A DNA stretch of 64,000 nucleotides from an uncultured Clostridium sp. (GTDB lineage: Bacteria; Bacillota; Clostridia; TANB77; CAG-508): the NCBI GenBank assembly GCA_902496295.1, contig CABVAF010000002.1:67503-131502 (forward strand), written 5' to 3'. Positions 1,528 through 46,980 of the stretch are shown here, piece after piece. The notes beneath the pieces were generated by a model, which searched no databases, was not told the origin of the DNA, and saw only the letters and a program-made list of their open reading frames with translations. A program made the position numbers and the translations under genes. The stretch's first letter is position 1; the number at the start of each line of letters is the position of its first letter.

Positions 1528-2880
1528 CTAAACACCCATTGCTTCTATTAGCCAGTTACCCATATACATTTCAATACATGGTACTAATACTACAACTACT
1601 AAGAATATTAATACTACTCCAACAATTGCATATGAAATTTCTGGTAATACTTTCATTATCTTTTGCATCTTATTATCTATATCTATATCCATATACTCTA
1701 AAAGCTTTGCCATCATTTCAGATAAGTCTGTTTGCATACCTATTTTAAGCATTTCTGTTTCCATTGCAGAAGATAATCCAGAATTTTCAAATGGTTCGAT
1801 CCATGAACCACCTATTAAAATATTATTTATAGACGATTCTATTATTGATAACATAACATAATTTTTTACAACAGATTTTGATACTTCTAAAGATTCTTGT
1901 ATTCTCATACCATTTTGTAAGTTCAAAAGCATTGCTCTCATTAATCTAGAAAAATCTATAGCATATATTAATGAACCAAACACTGGCATTTTATATTTAA
2001 AATAGTCAAAATTGTACCTTCCCTTTGGAGTATTTATATACCAGAAAATTCCTCCTGCAATAGCTACTACAATCATTACTGGAATATACCAGTATGCAAG
2101 AATCCAATCAACTACATCCATAAACCACAAAGTTATATCCGGAAGTTTAACACTAGAACCTACTTGTGCAAATACATCTTGGATTAGTGGTAATATATAA
2201 ATTGTTCCTACAAATAATAATATAATAATTGCTATAAATTGAGCTATATTTGGTATTAAAATAGATTTTAATTTTCTATTTCTTGAACCTGTATCATCTA
2301 AATATTTTACCGCTTGCTGTAATGATTGTGTAAGAGATCCTGATAACTCTCCAACTTTTATCATATTAATATATATATATGGGAATACATCTGAATAATA
2401 TTCCATAGTTGTATACATGTATTCACCAGCTTCTACACCAGCTAGAATATCCTCTAATACTCCTCTAAAAGACATATTTTCTGTACTTTGTATTAAAGTA
2501 TTTAATGCATGTATATTGTTAAAGTTAGCTTTTTTTAGTAAGTAGAAATTTTGTGTAAAAATTCTTACGTCTCTCTCTGTTATTTTTTCTTCAAGAGATA
2601 GAGCAAGACTTACCTTTTCAGATAGTTTTTGGTCTCTTGCTTTTCTACCTTGCATTACATCAGCAGAATTTGCCATTTTCATAATATCGTCTATATCCGT
2701 TACATTTCTTTTTCTACTTTTATGTTTTTTTACACTTCTATATCCTACTTGAGAAACGCTAATTGGTAGTAAATTATTACTCTTTAATCTTTTTATTAAT
2801 GTATTCTTGCTTACATCTTCTACCCTGTTTCGTACTATTTGTCCCTTTTCGGTAATAGCTCTGTAAACATATTCTGGCAT
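1528..2880 (-). CDS. pilC: Type IV pilus platform protein PilC (GspF family)
   Basis: 450-aa polytopic protein with duplicated GspF-like organisation. It is the last gene of the pil cluster, next to pilT/pilB. Confidence 0.85.
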   Translation of the reverse strand: MPEYVYRAITEKGQIVRNRVEDVSKNTLIKRLKSNNLLPISVSQVGYRSVKKHKSRKRNVTDIDDIMKMANSADVMQGRKARDQKLSEKVSLALSLEEKITERDVRIFTQNFYLLKKANFNNIHALNTLIQSTENMSFRGVLEDILAGVEAGEYMYTTMEYYSDVFPYIYINMIKVGELSGSLTQSLQQAVKYLDDTGSRNRKLKSILIPNIAQFIAIIILLFVGTIYILPLIQDVFAQVGSSVKLPDITLWFMDVVDWILAYWYIPVMIVVAIAGGIFWYINTPKGRYNFDYFKYKMPVFGSLIYAIDFSRLMRAMLLNLQNGMRIQESLEVSKSVVKNYVMLSIIESSINNILIGGSWIEPFENSGLSSAMETEMLKIGMQTDLSEMMAKLLEYMDIDIDNKMQKIMKVLPEISYAIVGVVLIFLVVVVLVPCIEMYMGNWLIEAMGV

Positions 2881-2896
2881 TTAGAATACCTCCCTT

Positions 2897-4021
2897 CTAG
2901 TTATCTTCTTGTCTTCTATTTCTATTTTCTTGTTTTATCTTTAATTGCATTATAGTTCTATTTAATACTTCTATATTCTTTTCTTCTATTTGAGCTTTTG
3001 CTTGCTCTAACGTAATTTTGTCTTTTGTAAATAATTCTGCTAATGAATTTATTAATCCAATGCTTCCCTTTTCAGAATTACTTTGTATAGCATCTTCTAT
3101 TTCAGAAACACTTATTTTCTCTTTTCTAACTATACCTGCTACTATGTTGTCTACAACCATAACTTCTGGAACCAATACTAAATCTCCTGCCCTTCCAGGT
3201 AACAATCTTTGAGAAACAACTAGTTTTAACAATGATGCTATTAAGAATTTTATAGTTTGTTGGTCTCTTATATCATAGAAGTTAATCATTCTATCTATTG
3301 TCTCTGCACAAGACTTAGTATGAAGTGTTCCTATTACTAAATGTCCTGCTTCTGCTGTTTCTATTGCTGCATCCATTGTTTCTTTATCACGAATCTCTCC
3401 TATAACTAAGATATCGCAGTCCTCTCTTAAAGAGTTTTTTACACCATCACTATAAGTTAAACAATCTTGTCCTACTCCTACTTCTTTTTGTACTATAATT
3501 GATTTTTTACATTTGTGTTTATATTCTATAGGACTTTCCAATGTTAATATTTTCTTATTTTGGTTTACATTAATTTCATTAATTAAAGCATTTAATGTAG
3601 TTGTTTTACCAGAGTTAGTCTTTCCTGTTACTAATATAAGTCCTTGTGGCTGATACATCATTCTTCTTACTATATCTGGAACTCCTAGTGACTCATATGA
3701 TGGAAGCTCATTTTTTATAATTCTTAAAGTTACAACTGGTACTTCATTTGAAAGCGATATGTTTACTCTTAAACGAATATCTGAAAATACAAATGAAGAG
3801 TCTAACTTCTTAGTTTCTTTAAATACTCTATCTTTATCTACATTTCCTCTAACAAAATAGTCATATATTTCCCACATGTCCTCTTCTGTTAATATATCAA
3901 ATTCTTCATAATTTATTAAGTCTCTTCTTACTCTCATTACTGGTTTTATTCCAGCAATTAAGTGAATGTCAGACGCATCTTTTTTTATTGCTAAATACAT
4001 AATTTTGTCAATGTCTATCAT
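2897..4021 (-). CDS. pilT: Type IV pilus retraction ATPase PilT
   Basis: Walker A GKTNSGKTTT, GEIRDKETM Asp box and GHLVIGTLHT His box. The size of about 370 aa is typical of PilT. Confidence 0.85.
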   Translation of the reverse strand: MIDIDKIMYLAIKKDASDIHLIAGIKPVMRVRRDLINYEEFDILTEEDMWEIYDYFVRGNVDKDRVFKETKKLDSSFVFSDIRLRVNISLSNEVPVVTLRIIKNELPSYESLGVPDIVRRMMYQPQGLILVTGKTNSGKTTTLNALINEINVNQNKKILTLESPIEYKHKCKKSIIVQKEVGVGQDCLTYSDGVKNSLREDCDILVIGEIRDKETMDAAIETAEAGHLVIGTLHTKSCAETIDRMINFYDIRDQQTIKFLIASLLKLVVSQRLLPGRAGDLVLVPEVMVVDNIVAGIVRKEKISVSEIEDAIQSNSEKGSIGLINSLAELFTKDKITLEQAKAQIEEKNIEVLNRTIMQLKIKQENRNRRQEDN

Positions 4022-5759: not shown

Positions 5760-6200
5760 TTACCAATATTTTAATACATACTCTATTTCTTTTGTAAATA
5801 AAGAACCTGTATTTCCTATTGCTATACTTACATTTACTATGTTTTTAGTTGTATTTCTTATAGTCTCTGTAGATGCCTTAAAAACTGCCACTTGCACATT
5901 TTTAGCTATTGCTTTTCCATTCCTATATATTGCTTTTTGCTCTAAATTAAAGTCATATTTTGTGCCATCTGCAAATGTAACTGTATTACCACTTACTGTC
6001 ACATCTGTATTATTTTTCACATCTTGTATAAAGAACATATTAAACTTATTAAATTCAGGAGCATAATTAGCTTGATCTTTTACTAAATTTACATTTGAAA
6101 AGAAAAAGCTAGATATTAATGCTAAAATTGATATAACAATTGTAAACACAATAACATAAATTACTAATGCAACTAATGTGACACCTTTTTGACTTTTCAT
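5760..6200 (-). CDS. Pilin-like protein (minor pilin) with prepilin-type N-terminus
   Basis: MKSQKG|VTLVALVIYVIVFTIV: short basic leader, Gly, then a hydrophobic helix. Located inside the pil operon. Confidence 0.65.
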   Translation of the reverse strand: MKSQKGVTLVALVIYVIVFTIVISILALISSFFFSNVNLVKDQANYAPEFNKFNMFFIQDVKNNTDVTVSGNTVTFADGTKYDFNLEQKAIYRNGKAIAKNVQVAVFKASTETIRNTTKNIVNVSIAIGNTGSLFTKEIEYVLKYW

Positions 6201-6215
6201 TATACCCTCCTAACT

Positions 6216-6647
6216 TTAAGCTTCTCTCACTTTATATCTAGTTATTACAAGCTCTTCTTCTCTTCCTTTGAATTGGTATTTTACCCTTAGTTCAACTCTT
6301 TTAGTAGGTTGTCCACCAACTTTTTTAGAAGAATCTGTTACATTTATTTTTAGTGCAAATCCTGTAGGTATTTGAAATTTAGTTTTGTACGAATCTTCCA
6401 TTCCATTTTGAATAAGGTCATAATCTGTTTTATCTATATCTTCTAATATTTGTATAGCACAAACAGTTGCTTCTGCCGATAATTGTGTGCTTAACTTTAC
6501 CTCTGTAATTTGATATAATATAGTTCCTATTGTTCCTGCAAAAAGCATAATTATAAAAATGGCAATAGCTAAATCTGTAAAAGTAAAGCCATATTCTGAT
6601 TTTATATTTAATTTCTTTAAATTTACATTATCCATTTTTTCCTCCAA
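6216..6647 (-). CDS. Pilin-like protein (minor pilin) with prepilin-type N-terminus
   Basis: ...KSEYG|FTFTDLAIAIFIIMLFAG: class III signal-like with an acidic residue (Asp) at +5. Confidence 0.65.
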   Translation of the reverse strand: MEEKMDNVNLKKLNIKSEYGFTFTDLAIAIFIIMLFAGTIGTILYQITEVKLSTQLSAEATVCAIQILEDIDKTDYDLIQNGMEDSYKTKFQIPTGFALKINVTDSSKKVGGQPTKRVELRVKYQFKGREEELVITRYKVREA

Positions 6648-16771: not shown

Positions 16772-17431
16772 ATGAGTACAGAAAACAAGAAGACTATAGA
16801 AGTGTACGAAAGAACAGCACATTTATACTTGGCTAACAGTATTGAGCATGATAATCTTGACCCAGCTAAAGCTATGCGAAAACGTGAAAAATTACAAAAG
16901 TTAATTAAAACAAGTTTTTTAGATTTACCAAAAAACGCTAAAGTATTTGAGATTGGCGCTGGAGATGGCTCTAACTCAAAATTTATTAAAGATTTAGGTT
17001 TTGATGTAACAGCAAGTGATACAGCAGATGATTTTATAAATGCTATAAAAAGTAAGAACTTACATACAATAAAATTTGACGCTTTAGAAGATAACTTTCC
17101 AGAAAAGTATTCTGGAGTTTTTTGTTGGAGAGTATTCGTTCATTTTACTAAAGAAGATGCTTCAAAAATAATTCAAAAAGTATATGATGCACTTGAGGAC
17201 AATGGAATTTTTATATTTAATGCTATGAATCGTGAAATTAGAACTATTGATAATGAGTGGGTAGATTTTAGTGGAGAATACCACATGGGAGAAGAACGTT
17301 ATTATAGTTATTTCCGTCAAGAAGACTTAGACAACATAATTAATAAAACTAATTTTAAAATAAAATCTTTCTATAAAGAAGGCGGCGAAAACAATAATAA
17401 ATGGCTAGTATATGTATTAGAAAAAAATTAG
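16772..17431 (+). CDS. Class I SAM-dependent methyltransferase
   Basis: Motif I VFEIGAGDGSNS followed by an acidic loop VTASD. 219 aa. Confidence 0.7.
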   Translation: MSTENKKTIEVYERTAHLYLANSIEHDNLDPAKAMRKREKLQKLIKTSFLDLPKNAKVFEIGAGDGSNSKFIKDLGFDVTASDTADDFINAIKSKNLHTIKFDALEDNFPEKYSGVFCWRVFVHFTKEDASKIIQKVYDALEDNGIFIFNAMNREIRTIDNEWVDFSGEYHMGEERYYSYFRQEDLDNIINKTNFKIKSFYKEGGENNNKWLVYVLEKN

Positions 17432-17480
17432 TCATTATGAATTAATTTTATCATTTTACATATAAAGTATTTACAACTTA

Positions 17481-17524
17481 AAAAAAAGCAGTGAAAAGAT
17501 TTTAAAATCTTTTCACTGCTTTTT
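17481..17524. terminator. Bidirectional terminator
   Basis: Perfect 16-bp arms GCAGTGAAAAGATTTT/AAAATCTTTTCACTGC flanked by A8 and T5. Sits between convergent genes. Confidence 0.8.
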
Positions 17525-17533
17525 AGGGTTAGC

Positions 17534-17848
17534 TCATTTCCTCAATTCTCTGCGTATTTTTTCGGCCATGCCGACGTCGTTGAAAGTAATTCGAATGTTT
17601 TTCCCACTAGCTTTTACCTGCGCACCACACTTCTCGAACGTTTCTTGCATATACTGCTTTAACTCTTTCATATAGATTTGTGCCAACGCATCGTTCTGCT
17701 CCTGAAGCTGGAATTCGATAACTCTTCCTCTGCTTGGTTCCACTAATTTGAGTGGAACCTTTCCCATTTTTCTTCTCCGATACGAGTTTTGACGTGCCCG
17801 CTCTGCTCCTCTACGGAATCCCTCAGAAAACGAAGCTAAAATTCCCAT
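17534..17848 (-). CDS. Orphan 104-aa protein of foreign composition, Arg-rich N-terminus
   Basis: AGGAGG SD 7 nt before the ATG. About 42-45% G+C in hand-counted blocks versus ~27% in neighbouring pepT. C/G-ending codons. No family recognised. Confidence 0.6.
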   Translation of the reverse strand: MGILASFSEGFRRGAERARQNSYRRRKMGKVPLKLVEPSRGRVIEFQLQEQNDALAQIYMKELKQYMQETFEKCGAQVKASGKNIRITFNDVGMAEKIRRELRK

Positions 17849-17855
17849 ATTGTTT

Positions 17856-17894
17856 CCTCCTAAAAATATCTGGAGGTTTACACAGCCCCTCCAG
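17856..17894 (-). promoter_or_regulatory. 5' leader with anti-anti-SD / anti-SD / SD arrangement
   Basis: RNA reads CUGGAGG-11 nt-CCUCCAG-AUAUUUUU-AGGAGG-7 nt-AUG. CCUCC can pair with either the upstream GGAGG or the SD. Confidence 0.4.
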
Positions 17895-17950
17895 AAAAAA
17901 TAAATAAATTCTCTCTTGACTTTGCTGTGTAAAGTGCAATAGATAAGTTT

Positions 17951-17979
17951 ATTATATCATGTTTTCCGCTAAAAATCAA
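17951..17979 (-). promoter_or_regulatory. Sigma-A type promoter of the 104-aa orphan gene
   Basis: TTGATT-17 nt-TATAAT on the minus strand. Confidence 0.6.
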
Positions 17980-18024
17980 AACATCTCATTTTGTTGCATA
18001 GTAAGTAAACATTCTATAACTACA

Positions 18025-19227
18025 TTATTCAGAATATTTTTTTACAATTTCCACAAGAATATCTACAACCTTTTCCATATCTTCTAAAAAAATGTATTCA
18101 TATATTCCGTGAAAATTGTGTCCTCCTGTTCCAAGATTAGGACAAGGTAATCCTTTTTCAGATAAATTGGAACCATCTGTGCCACCTCTTATTTCATGAA
18201 TTAAAGGTTGTACATTTACTTTTCGCATTGCTTTTTCGGCATTATCTACAAGATGTATATGTTTAGAAATTATTTCTTTCATATTGTGATATGTATCGGA
18301 AATCTCAATAGTTATACAGTTATTATATTTTTCGTTTAGGTTTCTAACTATTTTTCTAAACTCATTCTTTCTCTTTTCGAAGCCCTCTTTTTCAAAATCT
18401 CTAATTAAAAATTTAACTTGCGTGTCTGTAACATCTCCTTGAATTGAACTGAGATGATAATATCCTTCACGTTTTTCTGTAGTTTCTGGGTATTCTTTAG
18501 GAATTAAGTTAATTATTTCATTTGCAATCAATTGCGAATTAACCATTACATTTTTAGCTGAACCCAGATGGGTAGAAATTCCCTTAATACTAATATTTAT
18601 GGTTGCCGCATTAAAATTTTCATAAGATATTTCACCTAAATTAGAGCCGTCAATTGTATAAGCAAAATCTGCTTTAAATTTAGAAAAATCAAAATAATCT
18701 GTACCTCTTCCAATTTCTTCATCTGGAGTAAATGCAACATAAATATCGCCATGCTTAATATTATTATTTATAATATTTTCTAGCATAACCATTATTTCTG
18801 CAATTCCTGCTTTGTCGTCAGCTCCAAGTAAAGTTGTTCCATCTGTTGTAATTAAAGTTTTTCCTTTATGTTTTCTTAAGTCAGGATACTTATTCACATC
18901 TAAATACTCTTTTTCACTAAGCTGTATAGATTCACCGTTGTAATTACGTATTATCTTGGGATTTACGTCTACATCAGTAACCGCTTCTGATGTATCCATA
19001 TGTGCTATAAAACCAATTTTAGGTGCATTTTCTACTCCCTTAAGAAAAGCATAAACATAGCAATAAGTTTCATCCAGCCAAACTTCATCCATATTTAATT
19101 CTTTAAGTTCTTCTACTAGCACTTTTGCTAAACTTCTTTGGTTGTTTGTGCTTGGTGTTGTTTTAGTATTAGAATTTGAATTCGTCGGAATATGAATGTA
19201 CTTTAAAAATTTGTTTAGTAAAGACAT
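18025..19227 (-). CDS. pepT: Peptidase T (M20B tripeptidase)
   Basis: IAHMDT, GADDKAGIAEIM and TPDEEIG metal-binding motifs. 400 aa. Confidence 0.85.
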   Translation of the reverse strand: MSLLNKFLKYIHIPTNSNSNTKTTPSTNNQRSLAKVLVEELKELNMDEVWLDETYCYVYAFLKGVENAPKIGFIAHMDTSEAVTDVDVNPKIIRNYNGESIQLSEKEYLDVNKYPDLRKHKGKTLITTDGTTLLGADDKAGIAEIMVMLENIINNNIKHGDIYVAFTPDEEIGRGTDYFDFSKFKADFAYTIDGSNLGEISYENFNAATINISIKGISTHLGSAKNVMVNSQLIANEIINLIPKEYPETTEKREGYYHLSSIQGDVTDTQVKFLIRDFEKEGFEKRKNEFRKIVRNLNEKYNNCITIEISDTYHNMKEIISKHIHLVDNAEKAMRKVNVQPLIHEIRGGTDGSNLSEKGLPCPNLGTGGHNFHGIYEYIFLEDMEKVVDILVEIVKKYSE

Positions 19228-19511: not shown

Positions 19512-19599
19512 TGGTGCAGTTGGCCGGAATCGAACCGGCACGGTTTATTCAACCGCAGGATTTTAAGTCCTGTGCGTCTGCCAGTTCCGCCACAACTGC
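19512..19599 (-). tRNA. tRNA-Leu (anticodon UAA), class II with long variable arm, encoded CCA
   Basis: Reverse complement folds by hand: acceptor GCAGTTG/CAACTGC, anticodon arm CAGGA-CTTAAAA-TCCTG, long variable arm, T arm GCCGG-TTCGATT-CCGGC, ACCA end. Confidence 0.9.
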
Positions 19600-22116: not shown

Positions 22117-24489
22117 TTGAAAGCGGTGAATTATTTGAAACTAATAGACAAATTTTTAAAATTTTTAAAAACAGATAGAAATACATTTGTATCTTATATA
22201 TTAGCATTAATATCTGCTTACATAATGGTAGATAGAATTGTTGAAATATTATTTATAATATTTACTGGAGTCTCTTATTCTTATTGGGGACCAATAGAAT
22301 ATACATTATCATTTGCTTGTATAGCATTTGCATTTTTTATTTCCTTTGGATCTAAATTTGCCAAAAATGATAGAGATAAAATTAGAATATTCCATATATT
22401 TTGTATATCACTTTATATAGTAGCTATTTCAGCATGTGTACAATGGTTAAACCAAGCATTATGGTTAGGTTTATTATCACTTCCAAACTTCCCTGGATTA
22501 GTAAGTGAATTTCACAACTTATTCTTCCCAGCCTTAACCGCTCTTGGAATTTATTTTCCACTTACTACATTCTACAAGTTATTTAAGTGGTTAACATTTA
22601 CTGTAGATGATAGTAAAGATACTGTAGACTCTATATGTGATTATGGTGGAATTAGTTTAGCTACAACTAGCAAAGACCATGGAGTATATTCATGTGACGT
22701 AAAAATTTGTACAGACTCTGAAACAGGTGACAATGTAAAAATACCAGAAGTTAAAAGATTTGAATCTTTACTTGCTGTTGGTGTTTCTGGTTCAGGAAAA
22801 ACATCTATGATATATGAGCCAATGCTTGCTATAGATATAAACAAAAAGTTCTTCTTTAAAGAAGTTTCTAAGGAATTGGGTTTTACAGCATTAAAAACTA
22901 GAATCGCTACACTAAATTGCCCATATGATAACGAATACATTAATAAAAACTTCAATCTTTCAATGCTTATACCAAATCCTGATAAATTAGATGTATATAA
23001 AAAATATATGTCAAAAATGATACTTGCATCTAGTGGAGAAAATATTGTATATAGAGACTTAGGACTTACATATGTTTCTGCAGAACCAGAGTCTACAAGT
23101 AAAATTATAAAAATAGTACAAAACTATAATTTACCTATTAACATAGTAGATCCTGGAAGCAATGATTCGGTCGGCATTAATCCATTTATATACAAAGATC
23201 CTATAAAAACAGGTATTGCAATATCAAGTGTATTAAAAGGACTATTTGCTTACCACAGACCAGATTTACAAATGGCATTTAGAGAAAATGCAGCTATACA
23301 AATTATAGAAAACTTATCTATATTATTAAAAGAAATGTATCCAAGGCTAAATAATGGAGTTTTACCAACATTAGAAGACATGCTTAATTTATTAAATGAC
23401 TTCTCTTTGGTACAACAAATGACTGAAGAAATGAAACAAATTCCAGAACTTGCTGAAAAATATAGAATACTTATAAAATATTTAGAAAGTAATTTCTATG
23501 AAGATGGAATAGATGTTACTAGCACAAAACAGTCCGTATTTACAGCATCTTCAGAGTTGGATAATTTATTAAGATATCCTGGTGTAAAAAATGTACTATG
23601 TAATAGAAATAACAATATAGATTTCGATAAAGCTTTATCTGAAGGACAAATAACTATAGTTTGCACAAGAAGAGGAGATTTAGGTGCAACAGCGCATAAA
23701 GCATTTGGACTATTCTTCTTACTATTAATGCAACAATCTGTTTTAGCAAGACCTGGAAATGATAATACAAGAATTCCACATTTCTTATACATAGATGATT
23801 TCCCAGACTTTGTATGTAAAGCAATAGAACCTATATACACTATCTATAGAAAATACAAAGTTGCAACAGTTTTAGATTCTCAAAACTTATCACAACTAGA
23901 AGGTTCAATGGGAGATTCTGGTGCTAAGAAGATGAAAGAAACTATTTTGGCAAACTGTGTTAATAAAGTTATATTTGGTAATGCTCTTCCAGAAGATATT
24001 GAATGGTGGCAAAAAGAAATGCAAGACAAGAGGGAGTGGACTTGGAGTAGTACGATGGATGGAAGTAAAAATGAATACGATCCAAAAATGAGCGGCATAA
24101 AATATTCTTGGGTTGCAAACTATTCTGCAGGTAAAATTAAAGCTTTAAAAGGAAAACAAATTATTTATAAGGTTAAAGCAACTAATGGAAAAAGTTCTGT
24201 TGGTAAAGGTAACTTAGACTTCATAGACCCTAAATATAAAGCTCCAAAAAGCATTAAAAAGTATGACTTCTTAAAATACACGACTGGTATTTCAGATGCT
24301 GAAAAAGCTAAACAAGCATTTGAAAAAGTAAAAGGAAATTTTGAAGCAGTAACTAAATTAAATGATGTTACTAACACAGATGACGAATATGATCCAATTC
24401 AAACAAATACCAAAAATTCGAGTTTCTTATTTAATAATGATGATGCAATTGTTGTTAATTTAAAAAGGAAAAATAAGAAAGAAGAGTAA
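22117..24489 (+). CDS. Membrane-anchored TraG/TraD/VirD4-like (type IV coupling protein-like) P-loop ATPase
   Basis: About 4-5 N-terminal TM helices, Walker A GVSGSGKTS, Walker B-like HFLYIDDFPDF. The start is uncertain: the track uses TTG at 22117, and TTG at 22135 has a GGTGA SD. Confidence 0.5.
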   Translation: MKAVNYLKLIDKFLKFLKTDRNTFVSYILALISAYIMVDRIVEILFIIFTGVSYSYWGPIEYTLSFACIAFAFFISFGSKFAKNDRDKIRIFHIFCISLYIVAISACVQWLNQALWLGLLSLPNFPGLVSEFHNLFFPALTALGIYFPLTTFYKLFKWLTFTVDDSKDTVDSICDYGGISLATTSKDHGVYSCDVKICTDSETGDNVKIPEVKRFESLLAVGVSGSGKTSMIYEPMLAIDINKKFFFKEVSKELGFTALKTRIATLNCPYDNEYINKNFNLSMLIPNPDKLDVYKKYMSKMILASSGENIVYRDLGLTYVSAEPESTSKIIKIVQNYNLPINIVDPGSNDSVGINPFIYKDPIKTGIAISSVLKGLFAYHRPDLQMAFRENAAIQIIENLSILLKEMYPRLNNGVLPTLEDMLNLLNDFSLVQQMTEEMKQIPELAEKYRILIKYLESNFYEDGIDVTSTKQSVFTASSELDNLLRYPGVKNVLCNRNNNIDFDKALSEGQITIVCTRRGDLGATAHKAFGLFFLLLMQQSVLARPGNDNTRIPHFLYIDDFPDFVCKAIEPIYTIYRKYKVATVLDSQNLSQLEGSMGDSGAKKMKETILANCVNKVIFGNALPEDIEWWQKEMQDKREWTWSSTMDGSKNEYDPKMSGIKYSWVANYSAGKIKALKGKQIIYKVKATNGKSSVGKGNLDFIDPKYKAPKSIKKYDFLKYTTGISDAEKAKQAFEKVKGNFEAVTKLNDVTNTDDEYDPIQTNTKNSSFLFNNDDAIVVNLKRKNKKEE

Positions 24490-44715: not shown

Positions 44716-46050
44716 TTAATTCTTTTCTATAAATGAAGTGTCATAATTATTATTTATAAAATCTTCATTTTCTAATATTTTGTATAAGAAGTCTATGTTC
44801 GTAGTTATTCCATCTACTATAAATTCTCCTAATGCACTTTTCATTTTTGCTATACATTCGTTTCTATCATTTCCGTGAACTATAACTTTTGCAATCATTG
44901 AATCATAGCACGCTGGAATTGTATAGTCCGCATAAATTGCAGTATCTACTCTTATTCCGTTTCCACCTGGTAAGTGTAATCCTGTAATTTTTCCGGGACA
45001 AGGCATAAAGTTTTTATCTGGATTCTCAGCGTTTACTCTACATTCAATTGCATGTCCTGTAAATATAATATCCTTTTGAGAATACTTTAGTTTTTCTCCC
45101 CCCGCTATTTTAATTTGTTCCTTTACTATATCTATTCCAGTTACAAATTCAGTTACTGGGTGCTCTACTTGAAGCCTTGTATTCATTTCCATAAAATAAT
45201 AATTTTTATTTTTGTCTACTAAAAATTCTATAGTTCCTGCATTACTGTATCCAACTTCTTTTACAGCTTTAACAACAGTTTCACCCATTTTCTTTCTTAA
45301 TTTTTCATCAATTGCCATTGATGGGCTTTCCTCTAAAACTTTCTGGTGCCTTCTTTGTACTGAGCAATCTCTTTCTCCTAAAGATACAGCATTTCCATGT
45401 TCATCTGCTAAGACTTGAATTTCAACATGTCTTGGATTTTCTATAAACTTTTCTATATAAATACTATCATCACTAAAAGAATTTTTAGCTTCTTGTTTAA
45501 CTAAATCATACTCTTTAATAAGTTCTTTTTCAGAATAAGCTACTCTTATTCCTTTTCCTCCTCCACCTGCTGATGCTTTTAAAATAACTGGATAACCAAT
45601 TTTTTCTGCAATTTTCATTGCTTCTGAGACACTATTTATTACACCTTCTGAGCCAGGAACAACTGGTACTCCTGCTTTTTTCATTGTCTCTTTCGCTTTA
45701 GACTTATTTCCCATAAGATCTATTAATTTATAAGAAGGTCCTATAAATTTTATTCCTATTTCGTCGCAAATTTTTGCAAAATGGCTATTTTCAGATAAGA
45801 ATCCAAACCCTGGATGTATGCTATCACAGCCCTTTAAACATGCTGCTTCTATAATGTTCTTTATATTTAAATAACTTTTGCTAGATTTTGCAGGTCCTAT
45901 ACATACTGCTTCGTCTGCAAGTTTTACATGCAAAGCGTCTTTATCTGCTTCTGAATATACAGCAACAGATTGTATTCCCATTTCTCTGCATGCTCTTATT
46001 ATTCTTACCGCTACCTCTCCTCTATTTGCAACTAAAACTTTTTTTAACAT
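44716..46050 (-). CDS. accC: Biotin carboxylase
   Basis: [20 protein letters not shown]-grasp GGGGKGIR and [14 protein letters not shown]. Confidence 0.95.
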
Positions 46051-46064
46051 ATTCCATTTTCTCC

Positions 46065-46093
46065 TTGTTATTAAGATTTATTTGTGCTAGAAT
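46065..46093 (+). promoter_or_regulatory. Promoter of the plus-strand orphan gene
   Basis: TTGTTA-17 nt-TAGAAT with TG at the extended -10 position. Overlaps the accC RBS region on the other strand. Confidence 0.55.
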
Positions 46094-46126
46094 AATAACT
46101 ACCAACTCTTGAAGGGAGTGTTTATA

Positions 46127-46459
46127 ATGAATGATGTTGCTTCCTACTACTTCGACTTGGGAAAGCAAGACGCTTTCAGGTTCAAAGGTCACGTCAAAGC
46201 AACTGTTGAAGCAGACAACTCTTGTTTCTACCGGCTCGGCGTGCTGAGCGAGAGATACAAGAATTGTCCCAAACGTTTAGCCCTCATAGAGGAGCTTTGT
46301 CGGGAGTTTTCGTTTTACGACGAGCTTCCAAACCATGTGGTCATTACTCTAAAATATGACTACAGCCATCGTCTCCTTAAAAGAATGATGGACAACTTGG
46401 GATATCATGTCCCTGCACGTCCTAATTTCTTAGGTTTTAACGCCTGGAGAATTTTCTAA
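46127..46459 (+). CDS. Orphan 110-aa protein of foreign composition, antisense within the fab/acc operon
   Basis: GGGAG SD 8 nt before ATG 46127 (the track start at 46109 is a TTG). 47-50% G+C in hand-counted blocks. C/G-ending codons. No family recognised. Confidence 0.6.
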   Translation: MNDVASYYFDLGKQDAFRFKGHVKATVEADNSCFYRLGVLSERYKNCPKRLALIEELCREFSFYDELPNHVVITLKYDYSHRLLKRMMDNLGYHVPARPNFLGFNAWRIF

Positions 46460-46477
46460 GTTCAACATTTTTTCACT

Positions 46478-46517
46478 TTCTGGGTGGCTCCTGCCACCCA
46501 GAATTCTTTTTATTTTT
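46478..46517 (+). terminator. Strong GC-rich intrinsic terminator of the orphan gene
   Basis: TTCTGGGTGGC-tcct-GCCACCCAGAA followed by TTCTTTTTATTTTT. Confidence 0.85.
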
Positions 46518-46557
46518 ATACTTTTATAGTTTGCGATTCTAACATCTTACTATTATC

Positions 46558-46980
46558 TTATACTATTGCAAAAGTTAACTCTCCTTTTGCTGCAACTTTT
46601 CCATCAACAGTCGCAATTGCTTCTCCAACGCCAATTGGACCTTTTTGCTTTATAATTTTTACTTCTAATTTTAAAACATCTCCTGGTAAAACTGGCTTCT
46701 TAAAACGTAATTTATCAATTCCACCAAATAATGCATTCTTACCTTTGTTTTCTTCCATAGAAAGAATTGCTACTGCTCCAGTTTGAGCTAATGATTCAAC
46801 TATAAGAACACCTGGCATAATTGGATTACCTGGAAAATGTCCTTCAAAATATGGCTCATTTATGCACACATTTTTATATGCTGTACAGCTTTTACCTGGA
46901 ATTAGTTCTTCTACCTTATCTATCATTAAAATAGGTGGTCTTTGTGGAATTATTTTCATAATTTCGTTTATATCTAACAT
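46558..46980 (-). CDS. fabZ: 3-hydroxyacyl-ACP dehydratase FabZ
   Basis: [19 protein letters not shown] hot-dog active-site motif. Confidence 0.9.

Follow-up and report, generated by a model that had tools for sequence, protein, structure and literature searches.

In the leaders of erm and cat genes, of which ermC is an example, pairing of segment 1 with segment 2 and of segment 3 with segment 4 masks the Shine-Dalgarno (SD) sequence, pairing of segment 2 with segment 3 frees it, and control is exerted on translation rather than on termination (PMC5118997, PMC5499644). The mRNAs of type I toxins such as timP (PMC13000454) and aapA3, with its metastable hairpins (PMC6733600), likewise hide the SD intramolecularly, and alternative long-range or pseudoknot pairings decide whether ribosomes bind. 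Separately, putative mobile promoters have been described as upstream regions, located before non-homologous coding sequences (CDSs) within and between genomes, that share at least 80% identity across 50 nt or more; they may carry post-transcriptional regulators, and most have no Rfam matches (Nijveen, Matus-Garcia & van Passel 2012, PMC3575422). Here we analyze a 64,000-nucleotide stretch of DNA from an uncultured Clostridium sp. (assembly GCA_902496295.1, contig CABVAF010000002.1, positions 67,503 to 131,502; hereafter the window), in which a gene for a protein of 104 amino acids (aa) at 17534-17848 on the minus strand is preceded by a promoter and a 5′ leader of ~96 nt. Judging from sequence comparison, the promoter and leader form a reusable module that has been placed before at least seven unrelated small genes. 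We put the probability that this is a monocistronic small-protein gene, translationally gated by the reused promoter-leader module, at roughly 55%.

The topology predicted for the module leader is the same four-segment arrangement as in erm/cat translational attenuation, with 1:2 and 3:4 pairings opposed to 2:3. Those systems depend, however, on ribosome stalling at a leader-peptide open reading frame (ORF) that covers segment 1, whereas the module leader has no conserved leader ORF and its cargo genes are not resistance genes. In spirit its nearest counterparts are the structural switches found in mRNAs of type I toxins, and it too has a possible loop-loop, pseudoknot-like contact (ACACAGC:GCUGUGU); it differs from them in that no antisense antitoxin was detected here, the 104-aa protein is not a short hydrophobic toxin, and one leader serves many genes. 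With SD-sequestering riboswitch and RNA-thermometer platforms it shares an anti-SD and an anti-anti-SD upstream of AGGAGG, but it has no Rfam family and no evident aptamer, and it is not thermometer-like. As regards reuse, the module fits the published description of putative mobile promoters, comprising near-identical upstream regions before unrelated genes and reaching the 80% identity, over more than the 50-nt length, used to define them. These promoters are a descriptive class and not a mechanism; the present module, in contrast, includes a leader of defined structure, terminating precisely at the SD, and its cargo is consistently a small monocistronic gene with a high G+C content at third codon positions (GC3).

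Among members of the 104-aa family retrieved by protein similarity, conservation of the ~100 nt before the start codon far exceeds that of the proteins; P0004, for instance, is 46% identical to the window protein, and its leader is ~88% identical to the window leader. We built a search pattern, TTTACACAGCAAAG-N15-45-GCTGTGTA, from the two most conserved leader stretches and found 30 loci on metagenome contigs, 29 of which share the same promoter-leader-SD-ATG arrangement; the pattern had zero matches among IMG/VR viral contigs. The unit at these 29 loci runs from a TTG-type −35 element through TGnTATAAT and the leader to AGGAGG and an ATG at a fixed distance, followed by an ORF of 60-186 aa and a terminator. 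The downstream ORFs fall into seven families that lack mutual BLASTP similarity and have no curated family: besides the 104-aa family (A), these are a 74-aa hydrophobic protein beginning MKANKV (B), a ~100-aa protein beginning MIIFRP (C), a 77-aa protein beginning MAKVIV (D), a 76-aa coiled-coil-like protein (E), a 60-aa protein (F), and a 186-aa lipoprotein (G). Over ~88 aligned columns, mean leader identity is 0.80 between ORF families and 0.83 within them, and values go as high as 0.98 for leaders of unrelated ORFs; the window leader itself shares 94% identity with the leader of a family-D gene. The similarity starts at about −45 and ends at the SD. At locus L126, two modules lie 2.9 kb apart (2946-3053 and 5843-5952, plus strand) amid the housekeeping genes tsaB, tsaE and a glutamine amidotransferase gene, and drive unrelated ORFs of 76 and 60 aa. 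When the 104-aa family is considered through lineages retrieved by protein similarity, which carry no leader bias, five of ten have the module and five have other leaders. No second leader copy was found in the window, before the G+C-rich gene at 46127-46459 discussed below, or in 0.95 Mb of other Clostridia loci. As one module stands before unrelated genes, the genes that bear it probably share one post-transcriptional control. A side observation at L126 is a third small G+C-rich ORF (6322-6519), which has a similar promoter and another leader.

The leader spans 17849-17944 on the minus strand, with a transcription start at A17944 inferred from the position of the −10 element, in agreement with the ~95 nt given by an earlier note on this DNA; it is AT-rich, with a G+C content of 0.32. 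The note had pointed out that a CCUCCAG in the leader can pair either with an upstream CUGGAGG or with the SD, and these complementarities are indeed present, the inverted repeat TCTGGAGG/CCTCCAGA being complementary at 8/8 positions. It had missed a second repeat, TTTACACAGC (17933-17924) with GCTGTGTAAA (17886-17877), which is perfect at 10/10 positions and whose GCTGTGTAAA arm sits in the loop of the first hairpin. The leader can accordingly be described in four segments, all on the minus strand: segment 1 (UUUACACAGC, 17924-17933), whose partner in the 10/10 repeat is segment 2b; segment 2a (UCUGGAGG, 17888-17895), the anti-anti-SD and 5′ arm of a hairpin termed P2, identified from the 8/8 repeat; segment 2b (GCUGUGUAAA, 17877-17886), which forms the P2 loop and the 3′ strand of helix H1, as seen in both the inverted repeat and the consensus fold; segment 3 (CCUCCAGA, 17869-17876), the anti-SD, which would serve either as the 3′ arm of P2 or as the partner of the SD in helix H3; and segment 4, the SD itself (AGGAGG, 17856-17861), read directly 7 nt before the ATG. 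A weak hairpin, P1, can form between ACUUU (17931-17935) and AAAGU (17919-17923) and presents the ACACAGC of segment 1 as its loop.

The minimum free energy (MFE) structure predicted for the window leader scores −31.0 kcal/mol (z = −4.97 relative to shuffles, none of which is as stable) and corresponds to a masked, or OFF, state. In this fold UUUACACAGC pairs with GCUGUGUAAA over 10 bp (H1), the hairpin AGAGAGAAU:AUUUUUUCU at 17893-17916 (H2) draws in the CUGG at the start of the P2 5′ arm, and CCUCC(AGA) pairs with (UUU)AGGAGG (H3), burying the SD. All 23 distinct leaders have the same OFF fold as their MFE, at −26 to −36 kcal/mol and with 5/5 SD bases paired, and the RNAalifold consensus consists of the same three helices with 97% of cells paired. 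The predicted probability that the SD is unpaired is 0.0006 at 20 °C, 0.002 at 37 °C and 0.006 at 50 °C; with the SD thus over 99% paired in silico throughout this range, the prediction argues against an RNA thermometer. Folding of co-transcriptional prefixes forms H2 first and then H1, before segment 3 has been transcribed, so the predicted default is OFF. The alternative, ON state contains P2 (UCUGGAGG:CCUCCAGA), which is mutually exclusive with SD masking; P1 and P2 together score −14.4 kcal/mol. The P1 and P2 loops are complementary (ACACAGC/GCUGUGU), however, and a loop-loop duplex of −9.5 kcal/mol would bring ON to within ~7 kcal/mol of OFF. Both an SD paired with an upstream anti-SD (3:4) and a mutually exclusive 2:3 pairing are therefore found in the prediction. 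Of the two-way switch proposed by the earlier note, SD sequestration held up in 23 of 23 MFE structures, whereas the two-way scheme gave way to one of four segments, in which the predicted default, once the upstream segment is included, is masked.

Sequence variation among the leaders bears on both states. Across 24 distinct leaders, P2 is paired in 99% of cells; L093 shows the one GC-to-AU double change, from GGAGG/CCUCC to GGAAG/CUUCC, and three single changes are compatible with wobble pairing. In three lineages the core pair of P1 has changed from AU to GC. Covariation scores higher than in 500/500 shuffles with a model-fitted alignment and than in 494/500 with a MAFFT alignment; we regard the resulting support for the P2 alternative as modest. 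An anti-SD C-to-U change in L093 and L101 still pairs with the SD through G.U, such that both partners of segment 3 are kept. In L135, which was retrieved by protein similarity and is free of pattern bias, all 10 H1 pairs are maintained through a U.G change. The sequence-distinct leader of L105 has an analogous arrangement in which the 5′ segment UUGCACCUUUGAAA pairs with UUUCGGAGGUGCAA, leaving UCUCC to mask GGAGG (SD-unpaired probability 0.04); this leader lies at ~1590-1700 (minus strand) before a 59-aa membrane ORF beginning MGKQILTT, ~400 nt downstream of a module-driven 74-aa hydrophobic ORF. A gathering-threshold scan of the window with Rfam 15 returned a tRNA-Leu only, and a permissive scan (E ≤ 10) of 17300-18200 returned nothing over 17849-17944 except noise touching the 5′ end (E = 8.5). 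A covariance model of the leader, R1, scores 119.6 bits at this site, the sole copy in the window. The module is a candidate new cis-regulatory RNA.

Other modes of control by the leader were considered and set aside. The earlier note had suggested that the first hairpin could also act as an attenuator, as it is followed by AUAUUUUU in the window leader. This tail is not conserved (L114 has AACAUAAA and L117 has AUAAUUCA), a terminator scan is silent at the site, and P2 lies outside the predicted MFE structure, so we reject transcription attenuation. A leader peptide was rejected likewise because candidate starts are not conserved among leaders: no leader-peptide ORF is conserved with its own SD, and the 5′-proximal UUG, which has no SD before it, is AUG, UUG, ACG or CCG in other leaders and is followed at once by a stop in L114 (UUG-UAG). 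The same holds for a start-stop mini-ORF in the P2 loop (17877-17892, minus strand), where GUG-UAA (GUG-UGA in L135) stands 4 nt behind the upstream GGAGG. The GUG-UAA is lost in L099 and in L115/L119/L128, with an 8-codon ORF in L099 and an in-frame extension in L115, and it is thus probably incidental to H1 pairing.

The gene, its family, the reuse of the module, and the leader complementarities with their predicted energies are demonstrated here; beyond these, we infer that the RNA may actually switch, that OFF would be its default direction in vivo, and what its trigger might be. Under this model, a strong sigma-A-type extended −10 promoter would transcribe the gene, and the mRNA would open with a ~96-nt, four-segment translational gate. 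In the OFF state, segment 1 (UUUACACAGC plus AGAGAGAAU) would pair with segment 2 (AUUUUUUCUGG...GCUGUGUAAA), thereby leaving segment 3 (CCUCCAGA) free to mask the AGGAGG of segment 4; this is the predicted ground state. If segment 1 were removed, occupied or out-competed, segment 2a (UCUGGAGG) would capture segment 3 in P2 and the SD would be freed. As to the trigger, our guess would be processing at the 5′ end or the binding of segment 1 by an RNA or protein acting in trans.

This interpretation must be made cautiously, as several points weigh against it. The ON arrangement of P1 and P2 is 12-17 kcal/mol less stable than OFF and would be competitive only with the loop-loop duplex or an outside factor, and the window contains no trans-RNA complementary to segment 1 elsewhere; the folding energies themselves ignore tertiary contacts. 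The retrieved leaders are very similar, with an effective sequence number of 2.04, and their high identity may reflect recent spread and not selection on structure. Covariation is thin (1-2 informative pairs per helix), given that H1 was fixed by the search pattern; for the OFF fold it is uninformative, since the pattern fixed H1 and the ribosome fixes the SD, and the OFF state accordingly rests mainly on nearest-neighbor thermodynamics. Moreover, in half of the family lineages the gene has a different leader, and some of these leaders leave the SD open.

The 104-aa ORF reads exactly as quoted in the earlier note, which also placed it correctly: pepT lies upstream on the same strand (18025-19227; 453 bits to TIGR01882, cut-off 286), and a class-I SAM methyltransferase gene lies downstream and converging (16772-17431). 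In the sister strain L112 the same locus holds the gene with 95% aa identity, next to a PepT that is 98% and a methyltransferase that is 97% identical, and the two copies of the gene differ by 5 nonsynonymous and 2 synonymous codon changes. Together with the family homologues described below, this intact orthologue and these codon differences indicate that the 104-aa gene is real, conserved as a family, and fast-evolving. A structured non-coding RNA in place of a gene was rejected, as there is no Rfam or tRNA/tmRNA match, the CDS folds no better than its shuffles (z = −0.7), and there are forty protein homologues. Within the CDS we note a perfect 9-bp hairpin, GGUUCCACU-N6-AGUGGAACC (17736-17759, minus strand), at the site that encodes the most conserved peptide motif, VPLKLVEP. 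Beyond this immediate neighborhood, the nearest GTDB representatives have PepT identities of at most 73%, and none of 80 genome loci reached through PepT relatives shares the arrangement.

The G+C-rich composition and C/G-ending codons reported earlier are confirmed. G+C content is 0.437 at 17600-17899, compared with ~0.27-0.30 in the surroundings and ~0.28 in the genome, and only two islands of at least 0.45 occur in the 64 kb, the present one and 46041-46540. The GC3 of the ORF is 0.448, whereas 43 long host ORFs average 0.151 (sd 0.031, max 0.28), which gives a z of 9.5; a value of 0.40 is not attained in any of 141 host windows of 105 codons. Its synonymous codon choice has a log-likelihood of −1.56 compared with a host mean of −0.73 (sd 0.09), and the same protein recoded with host codon usage would have an expected GC3 of 0.16. 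The anomaly thus resides at synonymous sites. Amino-acid composition is rejected as its cause by the expected value of 0.16, mRNA structure by the folding z of −0.7, and ordinary expression bias by the GC3 of 0.11 in the HU gene. Across the family, GC3 ranges from 0.24 to 0.45 in hosts of 0.12-0.23; this range and the occurrence of the family at different loci make some mobility of the coding part plausible. The expression module, on the other hand, belongs to the AT-rich clade, as the promoter and leader are 85-98% identical to those of other small genes there.

The second G+C-rich gene, 46127-46459 on the plus strand, lies antisense in a fab/acc cluster between accC (44716-46050, minus) and fabZ (46558-46980, minus). 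Its GC3 is 0.505 (z = 11.3), it has ~10 homologue clusters, and it carries its own short leader (SD AAGGGAG) and a hairpin terminator; no copy of the module leader precedes it, and its product has no BLASTP similarity to the 104-aa protein. The gene is intact at the same locus in L130 (77% identical, flanks 93-97%) and in L131/L132 (50% identical, flanks ~70%). It shows 26 nonsynonymous and 29 synonymous changes in 110 codons, in comparison with 28 and 133 in 444 codons of accC, and it evolves much faster than its neighbors. GC3 in the gene and its relatives is 0.51, 0.41 and 0.34, in hosts of 0.15-0.19. High GC3 here thus cannot be relied on as a mark of recent arrival, since this gene keeps its locus across divergence and is still GC3-rich. 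The earlier note had suggested from composition that the two genes share a donor or a mechanism of arrival, and had looked to orthologues at the same locus in relatives for a test; by that yardstick the 46127-46459 gene is not a recent import, and the idea of a shared donor falls. In a wider view, small fast-evolving monocistronic genes of these very AT-rich genomes (17534-17848, 46127-46459, and those of L084-L136) consistently have GC3 values 1.5-3 times those of their hosts, both in seven unrelated families and in the gene that keeps its locus, where recent transfer is no explanation.

One may postulate that gene, promoter, leader and terminator arrived together as a recent foreign cassette from a higher-G+C donor, possibly the same one that supplied the 46127-46459 gene. 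A GC3 of 0.45 in a host of 0.15 (z = 9.5) would follow readily from such an import, and a family GC3 that spans from near-host values of 0.27-0.29 to 0.45 is what would be expected for stages of drift toward the host; yet the companion gene has remained at one locus across deep divergence and is still GC3-rich, and the AT-rich leader shares 94-98% identity with those that precede unrelated genes elsewhere among AT-rich hosts. Family members do occupy different loci in different species, and the 5 nonsynonymous versus 2 synonymous codon changes relative to the sister strain attest to fast evolution, but the pepT-methyltransferase flanks contain no integrase, repeats or mobile-element genes, and searches of phages, plasmids and viral contigs gave no match for the gene at either the DNA or the protein level. 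The only close relative, L112, has the gene, leaving no empty site for comparison. We consider a recent import unlikely. The inverted repeats could alternatively act on DNA, as operators of a shared repressor or, in a miniature mobile element, as its ends or its sites of recombination, as might be suspected from two perfect repeats just downstream of a promoter, conservation that reaches upstream to about −45, and a module found at many unrelated loci. The repeats are nested, however, with the SD as a third partner, which is typical of alternative RNA pairing and not of dimer operators; compensatory and wobble changes keep pairing and not sequence, and in L105 different sequences preserve the same pairing scheme. 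Neither terminal repeats nor target duplications nor a transposase could be seen, and homology ends at the SD and not at the end of an element, all of which makes a DNA-level role very improbable.

Other alternatives accept the leader as RNA. Firmicutes mRNAs are stabilized by 5′-proximal hairpins and SD-like elements, for example in ermC and the cryIIIA STAB-SD, and the module leader may be a constitutive 5′ element of this kind, with stabilizing hairpins and a strong SD, copied recently along with its promoter; the SD-masked fold would then be an in silico artefact. Leaders up to 98% identical between unrelated genes would be explained by recent copying, and the greater stability of P2 (−13.9 kcal/mol) than of the anti-SD:SD helix alone (−7.1), together with covariation in P1 and P2, would fit simple hairpins. 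Such an element leaves unexplained why a perfect 10-nt complement of the P2 loop lies upstream and is kept through the U.G change of L135, and why the sequence-distinct L105 leader has an analogous nested complementarity; moreover, the C-to-U change in the anti-SD of L093 and L101 retains SD pairing, and the full-length MFE masks the SD in 23/23 variants. We judge the constitutive element to be unlikely. A type I toxin-antitoxin-like locus, encoding a harmful small protein on an mRNA that is untranslatable until processed, with an antisense RNA as antidote, would account for SD masking by long-range folding and for activation by 5′ processing or a switch, which are hallmarks of toxin mRNAs (PMC6733600, PMC13000454), and two module-linked ORFs are small and hydrophobic (the 74-aa MKANKV family and the 59-aa ORF of L105). 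It is hard to reconcile, though, with a 104-aa protein that is predicted to be soluble, folded and alpha/beta, with a 186-aa lipoprotein as another cargo, with the lack of a promoter-like site on the plus strand in 17350-18100, and with the lack of a PADLOC match, and we regard it as highly improbable. The translationally gated gene is thus the reading we retain. A broader extension of it is tentative: the leader may represent a class of cis-regulatory RNA not described before, in which four segments and a loop-loop contact or long-range helix make up an SD switch. It would govern a regulon of unrelated, fast-evolving small genes in uncultured AT-rich gut Clostridia and would spread by promoter-leader capture, and the G/C-ending codons of these genes (and of 46127-46459) may be kept by translation-linked selection instead of being a footprint of transfer.

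The promoter consists of a −35 hexamer TTGATT (17974-17979, minus strand), found by a consensus scan, and an extended −10 element TGaTATAAT (17951-17959, minus strand), the TATAAT at 17956-17951 being separated from TTGATT by a 17-nt spacer, as the earlier note had it. It matches the consensus at 10/12 positions and has the TG extension. Matches this good are not rare, with 2.4 expected by chance in the 64-kb stretch; the weight of this promoter derives instead from its conservation at the same place in 24 related leaders, where a −35-like TTG element recurs at the same position, and TGnTATAAT is found in all 23 unique modules retrieved. Downstream of the gene, at 17483-17524 (minus strand), a perfect palindrome forms an intrinsic terminator with a 19-bp stem including A/T flanks, a 4-nt loop and a T-run. 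Because it is flanked by an A-run and a T-run, it should be usable from both strands, in line with the bidirectional terminator proposed earlier.

The 104-aa protein had been called an orphan, and a word-indexed search of 5.8 billion proteins, which gave no match beyond the gene itself, appeared to suggest the same. This was overturned by an exhaustive HMMER search: phmmer against 1.84 billion cluster representatives recovered 40 homologues at E ≤ 1e-3 (7 at E ≤ 1e-10), nearly all of 80-110 aa and aligning end to end at 30-47% identity. On this evidence the gene belongs to an uncharacterized family of ~100 residues found in very AT-rich uncultured gut Clostridia. The family alignment has a conserved core, PVKLVEPSxGRIVELEVTEqN...YM.qL..YA...G......I.i.F.D..MAE..R..W, ahead of which the basic N-terminal stretch is variable and in some members missing; the hydrophobic moment of the N-terminal helix is 0.5-0.6 in part of the family but not throughout it. 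Nucleic-acid binding, which the earlier note read from an arginine-rich N-terminus, is not supported by a segment this variable; an N-terminus that is basic, and in some members amphipathic, may point to association with membranes or nucleic acids. In the full-length AlphaFold model, a low-confidence N-terminal helix and a disordered basic linker precede the core (residues 29-104), which when modeled alone has a strand-strand-helix-strand-strand-helix arrangement with a pLDDT of 92 and a pTM of 0.77.

The earlier note's statement that no family is recognizable stands with respect to curated resources. The best Pfam-A match to the protein scores 13.9 bits, compared with a cut-off of 26; NCBIfam and PHROGs gave matches only at E > 0.01, PADLOC none, and a family-profile search of PDB sequences E ≥ 0.11 at best. 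Foldseek searches of the PDB and BFVD with the full-length model and the pLDDT-92 domain returned nothing at E ≤ 1e-3, and the fold and profile searches yielded only weak, generic alpha/beta resemblances to HAD cap domains and RRF domain II. Shared neighbors were also rejected as a clue to function, since genes next to family and module members differ everywhere (Fic, HU, DUF1287, RsmD-like, dxs, tsaE) and there is no common neighborhood. Taken as a whole, the earlier note was sound in its observations, and in its interpretation it was partly right, on SD sequestration (as predicted) and the lack of a known family, and wrong or unsupported on the orphan status, the foreign cassette with its shared donor, and the attenuator.

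Some further observations concern the family and the wider window. At L097 (580-1694, plus strand), three family paralogues of 98, 99 and 101 aa stand in tandem, the first two each with a duplicated promoter; their leader differs from the module, keeping a CACAGCUG/CAGUUGUG hairpin and masking the SD only partly. At L098 (73-492, plus strand), the 139-aa protein P0037 consists of the first ~80 family residues fused to a NusB C-terminus on a 1.3-kb contig with 2.6x coverage, and it may be either an assembly chimera or a real insertion into nusB. Elsewhere in the window there are a tRNA-Leu gene (19512-19599), a gene for a 790-aa protein with weak TraG-D_C similarity beyond murJ (22117-24489, plus strand), and a Replic_Relax-like gene at ~24.5-25.5 kb, also beyond murJ. 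The TraG-like region is not a recent mobile element, as it occupies the same position next to murJ in L131 (62% identical).

If the leader does switch, it would be a compact regulatory RNA, absent from Rfam, that co-controls small proteins in abundant uncultured Clostridia of the human gut, and it would provide a handle on when these small genes matter and what signal they answer. The module is also a clean case of promoter-leader reuse; regulatory rewiring through the capture of modules has been inventoried before but rarely dissected. For genome scans the locus offers a caution: high GC3 in an AT-rich genome is no proof of foreign origin, and because a gene that keeps its locus carries the same signal across diverged relatives, another force behind it must be considered.

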